A stretch of 64,000 nucleotides of DNA from Stegostoma tigrinum (GCF_030684315.1 NC_081386.1:12285914-12349913), one strand, 5' to 3'; positions 15,660 to 20,563 are shown, counted from the first letter of the stretch. The notes: generated by a model from the letters alone, not told the origin. Numbers and translations are program-made.

Positions 15660-16040
15660 TATCATTTTCACATGGGCATGTGTGACCCAGACAAAGCCAG
15701 GACTTGCTGACCATCCCTAGCTGCACTTGGGATGGTGGTGAGCTAATTTCTTGAACTATTGCTGCCCATCTGTTATAAATATAATCCTCAAGTATGTGAG
15801 GAAGGGAATTCCTGGATTTGGATCCACCGAAATTGAAGGAATGGTGAAAAAGTTTGAATTTCAGAGAATATTTCAATGCTTGTGGATGGTGGATAGGTTT
15901 TGGGATGATAGGTGGTATATTACTGCTAAATATATATCCCCTGACCTGTTCTTGTAGCTGCAGTATTTACGTGGGCATTGAATACAGTTTTCGGCCAATA
16001 GTAACCTCCAGGATGTTGATAGAAGGAGATTCAGTGAAGG
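15660..16040 (-). mobile_element. L2 LINE 3' fragment
   Basis: Same family as 12110-12510 and 46940-47560. Confidence 0.65.
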
Positions 16041-16041
16041 G

Positions 16042-16200
16042 AAGGTTTAATTCCACCCTAGGGTGACTGTCTTTGTGGAGTTTACACGTTGTCCCTGTGT
16101 CTGCATGTGTTCCCTCTACATGCTCTGGTTTCCTGCCACAGCACAAAGATGTGCAGGTTAGGTGGACTGGCCATGGGAAATGCAGCATTGGGGTGGTAAG
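16042..16200 (+). mobile_element. HE1-like SINE fragment
   Basis: ggtttaattccacc...gactgtctttgtggagttt...aaagatgtgcaggttaggtgg. Confidence 0.75.
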
Positions 16201-16329
16201 TTGCCTTTCAGAGGACAGGTCTGGACTTGATCACCCTAGTACCCTGCTTCTACACTGTTGAAGTTCTATGAGTAAGGATGTCTGCATCAATCTAGCCAAG
16301 TTTTATTTTCCATCTTCTGAGTGACAATG

Positions 16330-16882
16330 ATATGAAAGCAAGAGTAGGTCTATATCATGGCTGATGTTCATCCAAACACCATTTTCCCTCATTATCCCCA
16401 TAATCCATTGGTGTCATTAGTATCAAAAAGCCTATCTATCTCTAGAGTCACACATCATGAAAACAGATCCTTCGGTGCAACCAGTCTATGCCAAACATAA
16501 TTCCAAATTAAACTGGTCCCACCTGCCTGCTCCTGGCCCATATCCCTCCAAACCTTTCCTATTCATGTACTTAGCTAAATGACTTTTAAATATTGTAATT
16601 TTACCCACATCCACCACTTCCTCAGAAAGATCATTCTGCACATGAACCACCCTCTGGGTAAAAAATTGCTCCTCGTCTTTTTTAAATCTTTCTCTTCTCA
16701 TCTTAAAAGCGTGCCCTTTAGTCTTGAAATTCCCCATCTAAGGGTAAAGACAACTACCATAAACTCTATCTCTAACTCTCATAACTTTGGAAAAATGTAT
16801 AACTGATCTTCTCTGACCCTCTAGGGCAGAAAAATTGGGTAAGATCTGATAAAGGTCTTAAATTGCTTGTAGTTTTTCTAAG
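16330..16882 (-). mobile_element. Nested CR1 3' fragments; the older one continues at 19622-19930
   Basis: ORF 16486-16737 (KTKGHAFKMRRERFKKD..FFTQRVV) is a CR1 C-terminus; the older CR1 resumes after the Penelope TSD (gactcctttagttttagactc). Confidence 0.75.
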
Positions 16883-16980
16883 TGACAATGGGAACTGCAG
16901 ATGCTGGAGAATCCAAGATAATAAAATGTGAGGCTGGATGAACACAGCAGGCCCAGCAGCATCTCAGGAGCACAAAAGCT

Positions 16981-17008
16981 GACGTTTCGGGCCTCGACCC
17001 TTCATCAG
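16981..17008 (-). ncRNA. Minimal type I hammerhead ribozyme core
   Basis: Minus strand CTGATGA-A-GGGT-CGAG-GCCC-GAAA-CG-TC; palindromic ACGT in place of stem III, as known for PLE minimal hammerheads. Stem I is only ~2 bp. Confidence 0.75.
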
Positions 17009-17467
17009 AGAGGGGGATGGGGTGAGGGTTCTGGAATAAATAGGGAGAGAGGGGGAGGCGGACCGAAGATGCTGCCAGACCCGCTGAGCTTTAACAGCAA
17101 TTTCTGTTTTTATTCCTGATTTACAACATTTGCAGAACTTTTCAATTTTTATCAAGAGGTCATTATCATTGCTTTTAATGAAAAGTATCTGATAGCAAAA
17201 TAAATGACTCTTGTTTGAATTCAGGTAGAAATGAAAGCTCCATAAACAAATGTTTGAAAAATGTATTATTTAAGAAACTGTAACTTTTTCAATGCAATGG
17301 AGAAATATGACATTCCACAAATATAAAATTTGCTTTTCAGATCCAGTGAGATTACTTACCAGCAATTGCGAAGTCAGTTGACAACTGTTGACAATCCAGC
17401 CACATCTTCTTCAATATAATTAATTGTGAGACTGGATGAACACAGCAGGCTCAGGAGCACAAAAGCT

Positions 17468-17495
17468 GACGTTTCGGGCCTAGACCCTTCATCAG
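17468..17495 (-). ncRNA. Minimal type I hammerhead ribozyme core
   Basis: Minus strand CTGATGA-A-GGGT-CTAG-GCCC-GAAA-CG-TC. Confidence 0.75.
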
Positions 17496-17659
17496 AGAGG
17501 GGGATGGGGTGAGGGTTCTGGAATAAATAGGGAGAGAGGGGGAGGCGGACCGAAGACAGAGAAAAAATAAGATAGGTGGAGAGGAGAGTATAGGTGGGGA
17601 GGTAGGGAGGGGATAGGTCAGTCCAGGGAAGACGGACAGGTCAAGGAGGTGGGATGAGG

Positions 17660-18678
17660 TTAGTAGGTAGGAGATGGAGGTGCGGCTTGGGGTGGTAGGA
17701 AGGGATAGGTGAGAGGAAGAACAGGTAAGGGAAGCAGAGACAGGTTGGACTGGTTTTGGGATGCGGTGGGTGGAGGGGAAGAGCTGGGCTGGTTGTGTGG
17801 TGCAGTGGGGGGAGGGGACAAACTGGGCTGGTTTTGGGATGCGGTGGGGGAAGGGGAGATTTGGAAGCTGGTGAAGTCCACATTGATACCATTGGGCTGC
17901 AGGGTTCCCAAGTGGAATATGAGTTGCTGTTCCTGCAACCTTCGGGTGGCATCATTGTGGTACTGCAGGAGGCCCATGATGGACATGTCATCTAGAGAAT
18001 GGGAGGGGGAGTGGAAATGGATTGCGACTGAGAGGTGCAGTTGTTTATTGCGAACCGAGCGGAGGTGTTCTGCAAAGCGGTTCCCAAGCCTCCGCTTGGT
18101 TTCCCCAATGTAGAGGAAGCCACACCGGGTACAATGGATGCAGTATACCACATTGGCAGATGTGCAGGTGAACCTCTGCTTAATATGGAAAGTCATTTTG
18201 GGGCCTGGGATAGGGGTGAGGGAGGAGGTGTGGGGGCAAGTGTAGCATTTCCTGCGGTTGCAGGGGAAAATGCCGGGTGTGGTGGGGTTGGGGGGCAGTG
18301 TGGAGCGAACAAGGGAGTCACGGAGAGAGTGGTCTCTCCGGAAGGCAGACAAGGGTGGGGATGGAAAAATGTCTTGGGTGGTGGGGTCAGATTGTAGATG
18401 GCAGAAGTGTCAGAGGATGATGCGTTGTATCCGGAGGTTGGTGGGGTGGTGTGTGAGAACGAGGGGGATCCTCTTTGGGCGGTTGTGGCGGGGGCGGGGT
18501 GTGAGGGATGTGTTGCGGGAAATGCGGGAGGCGCAGTCAAGGGTGTTCTCGGCCACCGTGGGGGGAAAGTTGCGGTCCTTGAAGAACTTGGACATCTGGG
18601 ATGTGCGGGAGCAGAATTCCTCATCGTGGGAGCAGATGCAGCGGAGGCGGAGGAATTGGGAATAGGAGATGGAATTTT
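17660..18678 (-). pseudogene. Penelope polyprotein C-terminal part: RT thumb/linker, Zn knuckle and GIY-YIG endonuclease
   Basis: ORFs 18410-18595 and 17660-18352 are in one frame, split by a single TGA; motifs IPLVLTHHP, CNRRKCYTCPH and NVVYCIHCTRCGFLYIGETKRRLGNRFAEH...HF. Confidence 0.9.
17745..17860. repeat. ~39-bp tandem repeat (3 units) in the Penelope 3' region, mirrored at ~19170-19285
   Basis: Encodes TASQNQPSLSPPP / TAPHNQPSSSPPP / TASQNQSN. Confidence 0.8.
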
Positions 18679-18764
18679 AGGGATGTGCTGGAGATGGCCC
18701 AGGTGAACTGAAGGTTGGGGTGGAAAGTGTGGGGTTTGGTGCCTGTGTAGGTGCAGAGGAGGGA

Positions 18765-19143
18765 CTGTTCACTTCACCAACAATTTCACCCCAACCTTCA
18801 GTTCACCTGGGCACTTCCCTCACCTTCCTGGACCTCTCAGTCTCCATCTCAGGCAACCAGCTTGTAACTGATGTCCATTTCAAGCCCACCAACTCCCACA
18901 GCTACCTAGAATACACCTCCTCCCACCCACCCTCCTGCAAAAATTCCATCCCCTATTCCCAATTCCTCCGCCTCCGCCGCATCTGCTCCCACAATGAGGC
19001 ATTCCATTCTCGCACATCCCAGATGTCCAAGTTCTTCAAGGACCGCAGCTTTCCCCCCACAGTGGTTGAGAATGCCCTTGACCGCGTATCCTGCATTTCC
19101 CGCCACACATCCCTCTCACCCCGCCCCTGCCACAACCGCCCAA
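18765..19143 (+). pseudogene. Penelope RT C-terminal fragment in the inverted arm; endonuclease deleted
   Basis: LTFLDLSVSISGNQLVTDVHFKPTNSHSYLEYTSSHPPSCKNSIPYSQFLRLRRICS contains the PLE RT motifs FLD, KPT, SSHP and RLRRICS. Confidence 0.9.
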
Positions 19144-19530
19144 TGTGGACTTCACCAGCTTCAAAATCTACCCTTCCCCCACCGCATCCCAAAACCAGCC
19201 CAGTTTGCCCCCTCCCCCCACTGCACCACACAACCAGCCCAGTTCTTCCCCTCCACCCACTGCATCCCAAAACCAGTCCAACCTATCTCTGTTTCCCTAA
19301 CCTGTTCTTCCTCTCACCCATCCCTTCCTCCCTACCCAATCCGCACCTCCATCTCCTACCTACTAACCTTATCCCACCTCCTTGACCTGTCCGTCTTCCC
19401 TGGACTGACCTATCCCCTCCCTACCTCCCCACCTATACTCTCCTCTCCACCTATCTTCTTTTCTCTCCATCTTCGGTCCGCCTCCCCCTCTCTCCCTATT
19501 TATTCCAGAACCCTCACCCCATCCCCCTCT

Positions 19531-19558
19531 CTGATGAAGGGTCTAGTCCCGAAACGTC
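19531..19558 (+). ncRNA. Minimal type I hammerhead ribozyme core
   Basis: CTGATGA-A-GGG-TCTAGT-CCC-GAAA-CG-TC. Confidence 0.72.
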
Positions 19559-20376
19559 AGCTTTTGCGTTCCTGAGATGCTGCTGGGCCTGCTGTGTTCT
19601 TCCAGCCTCACATTTTATTATCTTGTAGTTTTTCTAAGACTGACTCCTTTAGTTTTAGACTCACCAACTGCCTCCACCGAAAAATAATACCCAACCAGTG
19701 GAAATGACCAATCCATCCCTGTCTGGTCCTTTACGAATTTTGTAAGTTTCAACGACGCCACTTCATTCTTGTAAGTTCCAGAGAATACAAGCCTGGTCTC
19801 CTCAAGCCCCTCCTCATTAGACAGTCCCACCATTGAAGGAATCAGTCTGGTGATTCTTCACCGCAATCCCGCGCACACACAAGCATCCTTCCTTATGTAA
19901 GGGGACCAAAAGCATGCAGAATGCTCCAGAATCTTCACAGAAACAGGGACCTCTCATATGTTATTGACATGTTAATTCTCGCATATAGGTTTAATTGTCA
20001 AACACAGCAATATTAATTATTTCAAAACCAAACATTCAAAACATATCAGTGACCTGAAATTTAGCTTTTCCTCCATATCCATGGGTGCTCCCTGACCTGC
20101 TGAGAATTACCTACATTATGTCAGTGAAGAATATTATGGTTGACAATATCCAAGGGTTAATGTGTGGGACTGTATGGATAACACGTCTCTTAATAATGAT
20201 GTGTATTAGCGCAGGTTTGAGAGACTTGGAGGCAGTTTGATCATGGCTTCAGCAGAGTATGCCATGCTTACGTAAAACTGTTTGTGGTTTCTTAATTTGT
20301 ACTTTAGTATTTTATGAACTTATCAATGGCTCAACAGTCTTTTCAGAGCTGAACTAACCGACTTAAACAGCTAAGA

Positions 20377-20563
20377 GCAATAAAAAACAGAAGTTGCTGG
20401 GAAAGCTCAACAGTTCTGGCAACATCTGTGAAGAAAAATTAGAGTTAACATTTTGGGGCGTTAACTCTGATTTTGCTTCACAGATGCTGCAAGGACTGCT
20501 GAGTTTTTCCAGCAACTTCTGGTTTTTGTACCTGATTTACAGCACCCATAATTCTTTTGGTTT
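20377..20563. mobile_element. Fold-back Penelope family 2 mini-insertion
   Basis: Arms aaacagaagttgctgggaaagctc...agagttaac / gttaactct...cagcaacttctggttttt; tail on the right; perfect 14-bp TSD ttaaacagctaaga at 20363-20376 and 20564-20577. Confidence 0.9.

Follow-up and report, generated by a model that had tools for sequence, protein, structure and literature searches.

A head-to-head Penelope-like insertion in Stegostoma tigrinum that encloses an inverted copy of a locus 33 kb distant

The block at 16883-19621 of the window (the whole 64,000-nt stretch of Stegostoma tigrinum DNA that was analysed) is a genuine head-to-head Penelope-like insertion, bounded by a target site duplication (TSD) and with a tail at one end. 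It records a real and infrequent accident of copying, such as has been seen with human L1. Our preferred reading, to which we give a probability of about 0.5, is that a single event made the whole block: the first cDNA would have paired with a look-alike remnant 33 kb off instead of with its partner arm, been extended on it, and then been primed anew. What is new here is the 33-kb distance of the donor, the restart and, likely, the entry guided by homology.

The insertion and its frame

Resolved into pieces against 29 family copies fetched from the genome, the insert is enclosed, as a preliminary description had claimed, by a perfect 17-mer, present on the plus strand at 16866-16882 and at 19622-19638, which is absent elsewhere in the window and whose repetition by chance is expected at about 1e-5. 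The first four nt of this 17-mer (CTTG) also continue the terminal repeat (pLTR) of the plus arm, and therefore the true length of the TSD is 13-17 bp, its left copy measuring 17 bp, or 13 bp without the 4 nt common to the pLTR. The tailed terminal repeat announced on the minus strand is indeed found, as cDNA 1 (16883-17071, minus), a tail plus pLTR corresponding to the last 189 nt of the element, which carries a hammerhead-core motif and departs from the family majority at 2 of 190 nt. Its last 3 nt (ATG) are common to the donor of the following piece, an inverted 348-nt copy (17069-17416, strand given as ".") of C43:12270078-12269731 (L002:1848-1501 in genome G000). There follows the minus arm, cDNA 3 (17417-18678, minus), running from the tail-less site of the family to the RT thumb region, with an 11-nt deletion at 17449/17450 and, at 17660-18409, an ORF that holds a CX4CxxC linker and the GIY-YIG domain previously noticed, recognized by Pfam at E 2.2e-4 with 21.9 bits against a cut-off of 22.6.

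Two shorter element pieces in the same orientation come next: one (18679-18733, minus) after a skip of about 120 nt, without microhomology, and the other (18729-18783, minus) after a skip of about 85 nt with some 5 nt of microhomology, the latter overlapping the inversion seam near 18770. The plus arm, cDNA 2, consists of a 5′ part (18770-19143, plus), with a 10-nt deletion near 18811, and a 3′ part (19141-19625, plus) that stops at the tail-less site; it ends without a tail, as described, and its two parts are separated by a 591-nt deletion. The patchy inverted junction of the preliminary description exists, although at 18679-18783, with the plus arm starting at 18770 and not at 18813.

One TSD thus encloses six large internal junctions together with the 10- and 11-nt deletions. 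The inversion seam is an ordinary arm-to-arm join, while the junction of the 591-nt deletion, with a 3-nt CAA microhomology, occurs once in the genome; skipping by the RT is the simplest cause of the deletions, and a later loss at the DNA level is also possible for each of them. Since the seam is ordinary and the private deletions may be later, the "at least five template jumps" proposed for a single event are a count of discontinuities, not of demonstrated RT jumps; the one TSD-bounded event with several discontinuities stands.

Immediately to the right of the TSD there is an old CR1-like 3′ fragment (19639-19860, minus), which may continue to the left of the TSD as far as about 16854. The idea that the block splits this older element is weakly supported: a profile of 31 similar copies bridges the empty site reconstructed in silico and reaches 12 nt beyond the TSD on its left side (0/7 for control joins), but BLASTN across that site gave 0/22 spanning matches, TBLASTN no match for CR1 continuity, and Pfam no name for either flank.

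Inverted repeats do trouble assemblers, and the block could be conceived of as an artefact of assembly; this is scarcely believable, however, given six differences between copy and donor, an exact TSD as long as is typical of the family, junctions that are private, and a contig of sample S1 that spans the left junction and reaches 24 letters into the element, below the bar of 31 letters, S1 being possibly the assembly's own sample. No empty allele appeared among the contigs aligned on 15900-17440 and 16750-16900, which were swamped by repeats; organisms B and D yielded nothing that covers the unique flank. Within the captured stretch the S1 contig differs from the window at 3/5 of the diagnostic places covered and that of S2 at 0/4, a pattern in which a collapsed assembly and a polymorphism of the donor look the same.

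Identity and habits of the family

In a family copy of 517 aa (L146), a single ORF contains RVT_1 (E 1.1e-4) and then GIY-YIG (E 0.0067), both under the Pfam curated cut-offs, that is, the order of RT and C-terminal GIY-YIG that is diagnostic of an endonuclease-positive (EN+) Penelope-like element. A pLTR with an optional tail of 30-40 bp, an inverted truncated copy and a TSD are likewise present, with two end clusters about 33 nt apart. All three pLTRs of the insertion contain a candidate hammerhead-core motif, and this motif is decayed in the donor remnant; Rfam at E<=1 gave no hammerhead match, only sub-threshold matches of the microRNA-hairpin type. The ORF at 17660-18409 shows the CCHH motif, with VYCIHCTRCGFLYIG followed by the histidines and two cysteines between GIY and YIG, according to the cysteine criterion of PMC8557442 (this and the other sources are cited here from their accessible parts). 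Ahead of the endonuclease, the linker CNRRKCYTC fits the form CX2-5CxxC, a mark of the Neptune/Nematis type that is absent in Penelope/Poseidon (PMC8557442). By these protein features, the element fits an endonuclease-positive Penelope-like element of the Neptune/Nematis type.

What is normal for the family was established in 1.51 contiguous Mb around the locus (C43:11646000-13159899), which contain 136 clusters of family pieces; 49 TSD-bounded two-arm rows, less one duplicate with the same TSD, left 48 units, filtered for a clean TSD and gaps < 900 nt. In every one of the 48, one outer end is tailed and the other tail-less; their TSDs measure 12-19 bp, and the tail-less start falls at offset 30-45 from the tail end in 46/48. 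The head-to-head frame, the one-sided tail and the TSD length of the insertion at 16883-19621 are the family norm. For Penelope-like elements, this head-to-head form with a one-sided tail has been described (PMC8557442), and two adjacent RT start sites, with extension of both cut strands, have been shown in vitro (PMC11167929). An internal gap of at least 12 nt is present in five of the 48 units, three of these gaps being element-derived, one of 16 nt being without a match, and the fifth belonging to the insertion treated here; local capture is therefore found in 1/48 units, and in 0/47 once the locus from which the survey started is set aside. The 11-nt deletion of the pLTR occurs 99 times in the genome, the window included, and in the six such loci inspected the partner arm is visible in two and intact in both, so that this deletion is recurrent and arm-specific. 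On the 3′ side of both nicks, the 48 units also display a target motif, albeit a weak one (approximately R^YTKNNTT), and their tailed and tail-less ends pair one to one.

The captured stretch and its donor

A search of the genome (3.2 Gb) with 17112-17424 returned 28 matches, namely the window itself, a 305-nt match of 98% that lies at C43:12269731, and 26 short ones in AT-rich sequence. The ungapped alignment of 17069-17416 to this donor extends to 348 nt, with 342 identical positions and six differences. The donor, apparently intact, lies 33,251 nt distant on the same contig and on the opposite strand; only these two full copies exist in the genome, and by our arithmetic a random donor would be found so near with a probability of about 2e-5. 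Non-element DNA inside a TSD, with an intact donor nearby, is the pattern of a locally templated insertion. The first ~55 captured nt come from an old hairpin remnant of pLTR-like type, of which they form one arm, and the remainder is single-copy DNA.

The preliminary description had seen here a piece of a different Penelope family plus unique DNA, and had concluded that the RT switched templates between families. Both the pLTR-like piece and the unique DNA are present; they are, however, a single contiguous inverted copy of one donor and not separate pieces, and the switching between families is not borne out. In that scheme the RT would have left the RNA of this family for a free RNA from a second Penelope family, gone on to an unrelated unique sequence, and finally returned, and the pLTR-like repeat with its decayed hammerhead core in the first ~55 letters speaks for it; with both parts contiguous at the donor and aligned without gaps, and with other copies of the repeat at most 84% alike in the 1.51 Mb, it is extremely improbable. 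This contiguity refutes two separate jumps, and leaves, of all RNA templates, only a read-through RNA of the donor locus as possible. What survives of the original claim is that the switch probably entered the donor through a related pLTR-like remnant, by homology.

The captured copy contains no intron, and ORF scans, crude exon scoring, Pfam on 15 candidates, a protein search and a PDB search revealed no host gene. The spacer could also have been carried by the source element already, through 3′ transduction or mobilization in trans, as proposed for Pen1_Av and Pen3a, and indeed two direct pLTRs with a host spacer and one inverted pLTR are a described Penelope form (PMC3846280). Nevertheless, 3′ transduction supposes a donor that abuts the 3′ end of the source and a site unrelated to the donor, and no family element abuts either donor end, only two full copies exist, and the donor is local, which transduction does not predict; we hold this origin to be very unlikely.

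Other repeats and duplications were observed in the neighbourhood. A hairpin remnant of the same pLTR-like kind as the entry repeat lies at 20382-20527 of the window. At 2.5 kb from the donor there is a perfect 154-nt inverted local duplicate (L012; C43:12266719-12266872 and 12267114-12267267), 395 nt apart and with no Penelope piece adjoining. Just past the tail-less end of an old Penelope copy, C43:11824206-11824345 and 11824760-11824899 form a 91% inverted pair of 140 nt, and C43:13062784-13067402 and 13153887-13158815 an inverted low-copy duplicate of ~4.6 kb, 90% alike and 90 kb apart.

Age of the event

The arms had been called very similar, and the event accordingly young. This does not hold: the arms differ at 26/474 plus 21/203 positions, i.e., 47/677, whereas the copies of a neighbouring subfamily are 99-100% alike. 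They have two non-majority variants in common, three motifs of their private variants occur once each in the genome, and, in a search for the source lineage of the arms, the best relatives reach 97% (among the 40 scored of 5,099 candidates). The event is middle-aged for the family, not young. As for the neighbouring subfamily, a copy 50 kb away (L014; C43:12250507-12252536) is a 2-kb palindrome of a very young subfamily with at least 40 genomic copies 99-100% alike; conversion within the palindrome was considered as the cause of its near-identical arms and was rejected, the copy belonging to that young subfamily.

The age of the captured piece bears on a history in two steps, in which an ordinary tailed two-arm insertion came first and the pLTR piece and the donor copy were added later at the tail boundary, either by a second retrotransposition into the element's own pLTR or by a template switch in replication that duplicated ~150 nt. 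By their differences, the capture and its donor (6/348) and the tail pLTR (2/190) seem younger than the arms, for which 50 non-CpG changes are counted over 1,934 nt, and on the clock of the arms 17.4 differences between capture and donor would be expected where 6 are seen (P 0.0015). In addition, the minus arm has four changes in 14 nt at the point where cDNA 1 ends, as many as in only 1/73 family copies, and nicking of the element's own pLTR has been proposed (PMC11167929). However, in the 43 other units the TSD cores differ at 7/380 against a mean of 4.5% between arms, and once the clock is scaled by these TSD mismatches 7.1 differences are expected against the 6 seen, so that the age gap, significant on the arm clock, vanishes, and as a proof of two steps it was rejected. 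This scaling is rough, being built on seven mismatches and biased to clean TSDs, and therefore the later addition stays alive as a rival. Also to be set against it are the absence of a second TSD, the lack of any private variant common to the two left pLTR copies, and, for the replication route, a return point that would fall in the tail-less start window by chance in ~7% of cases. Taken at its present weight, a history in two steps is unlikely. The ~2.4-fold greater difference of arms than of TSD cores in the 43 two-arm units hints that arms may differ at birth, through the use of two RNAs or through errors of the RT.

Entry, restart and the course of the insertion

The sequence of cDNA 1 ends in ...AGATG, and the donor letters beyond the entry match the continuation of the pLTR at 4/4, 11/15 and 17/30 positions; in a post hoc test, 0.66% of the ATG positions in the 1.51 Mb match this continuation as well, and there are 22 equally matching sites within 50 kb, the insertion's own included. 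This same break is seen five times in the genome, and the other four, three of them with a TSD of 13-14 bp, join the left arm to the sense pLTR of the right arm. Because these four are arm-to-arm joins, the most fitting view of the junction at 17069 is that of a normal seam for which the partner was the wrong one, namely the decayed pLTR-like hairpin. The direct microhomology at the entry is 3 nt, from which we infer an intermediate pairing on CATCT. On the far side of the capture, the minus arm has its start at offset 37, counted from the tail end, which places it in the tail-less start cluster (30-45), and its first letters include three mismatches, as they do in 9/71 family copies. A restart of 14 nt inside the seam, without capture, is found in another copy (L045). 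Among further unusual copies, L208 has two tailed arms, apparently of different subfamilies, joined at AGATG and followed by a 293-nt spacer and a repeated tail, and L044:360-2393 is a Penelope nested in a Penelope, with ~14 nt duplicated and two tail-less ends.

If these elements are assembled into one course of events, (i) the endonuclease would have cut both strands 13-17 nt apart, each end then priming the RT, one at the tail site and the other at the tail-less site, in the pattern of all 48 units and with a chemistry suggested by PMC11167929; (ii) cDNA 1 halted after 189 nt at ...AGATG, the register that elsewhere is seen to join left to right arm; (iii) its end would probably have paired on CATCT, its own or that of the partner cDNA, gaining a few pLTR letters, and then engaged the homeologous remnant 33 kb off, on which it would have been extended by 348 nt with DNA or nascent RNA as template; (iv) the new 3′ end would have primed the RT again at the tail-less site, where the arm is seen to start, yielding a minus arm of 1.3 kb with two skips; (v) and finally, the minus arm would have been joined to the plus arm via a short microhomology. 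A single event is favored because all the pieces are enclosed by one TSD, with outer ends that obey the rule of the family, because no other full-length match than the donor exists and this donor is on the same contig, and because the minus arm starts within the tail-less window of the family. Against it count the uncorrected arm clock, the short microhomology at the entry, the fact that it is a single case, and the far end of the donor, which scores like an endonuclease site (P ~0.04, post hoc).

This last point leads to a variant, also of one event, in which the donor was nicked as well, the minus arm was primed there, and the donor end with its cDNA was moved or copied into the seam 33 kb away, with docking through the complementarity between the remnant and cDNA 1 and with the donor restored from the sister or the homolog. 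Tail-less starts are otherwise primed from target nicks; when the donor end is taken together with a partner nick at a distance of 16-17 nt, the score on the target motif of the family is 7.26, which falls at the 55th percentile among real sites (against random, P 0.04, with a likelihood ratio of ~5); the donor letters at 17067-17086 are 80% complementary to cDNA 1 at 16945-16964; and synchronous L1 insertions bridge distant sites (bioRxiv 10.1101/2024.08.27.596794). On the other hand, the joint statistic was picked after the data were seen, the single-nick test gives P 0.20 (an earlier test of the target motif at the donor was uninformative, its window having missed the informative columns), and the donor end bears neither scar nor element, so that an extra repair step is needed. 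Since re-priming of the extended cDNA requires no repair of the donor, we rank it first and the two cuts second, as a tentative and rather improbable alternative; in its full form, in which Penelope would have cut at the same time at two points 33 kb apart and the two cuts would have been stitched together as a single inherited insertion, with the pLTR remnant as the dock, it is slightly more doubtful still.

Relation to known systems and meaning

The insertion resembles the EN+ Penelope-like elements of PMC8557442 and PMC11167929 in its RT with C-terminal GIY-YIG, pLTR, tail at one end, inverted arm and TSD, and in the two RT start sites with both strands cut and extended; what sets it apart from them is that a single TSD also contains a third RT start and 348 nt copied from a local genomic site. 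With the Pen1_Av spacers and the Pen3a-flanked captures of Adineta vaga (PMC3846280) it has in common host DNA between direct pLTRs, an inverted pLTR and a TSD. For these rotifer elements a "capture of host DNA" and template jumps were proposed with the donor unmapped (PMC3846280), whereas in the present case the donor has been located, in cis and at 33 kb, each of the two junctions is resolved, entry falls within a related remnant, and there is no sign that the unit moved again. A literature search, with subscription journals mostly outside its coverage, found no mapped local donor for a Penelope capture, and the accessible parts of PMC9977147 and PMC10760644 hold nothing on Penelope captures.

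In human L1, templated genomic pieces, twin priming and joins of several RNAs (PMC11702581), as well as synchronous bridges (bioRxiv 10.1101/2024.08.27.596794), have been reported, and the likeness extends to both ends being extended, a TSD of 12-18 bp (13-17 bp here), microhomology at the seams and nearby DNA inside. L1 is nevertheless a different class of element, and its cases come from tumours or cell culture, while the present one is an inherited locus of an assembly; nor does twin priming of the L1 type, with separate portions of the RNA in each arm, apply, as both arms begin at the pLTR end and overlap by 677 nt.

The way in which a Penelope insertion is completed has yet to be defined (PMC8557442, PMC11167929). 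The present locus, one dead copy without sign of function, has the value of a mechanistic fossil. Together with its neighbours, it indicates that extension takes place at both target ends, each from its own start site; that Penelope arms can join by a short microhomology at a recurring register; and that a cDNA end left without its partner can likely reach a look-alike remnant tens of kb off, and then restart. The homology at the entry and the target motif at the donor end are predictions that can be tested. If the donor was indeed cut as well, pLTR remnants would be landing pads, Penelope insertions would duplicate and rearrange the local chromosome, and the locus would be the equivalent, in the germline, of the bridges that L1 forms in tumours. 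Rotifers are known to have host spacers between pLTRs, described without a donor, and for spacers of this kind the locus supplies a mapped one.
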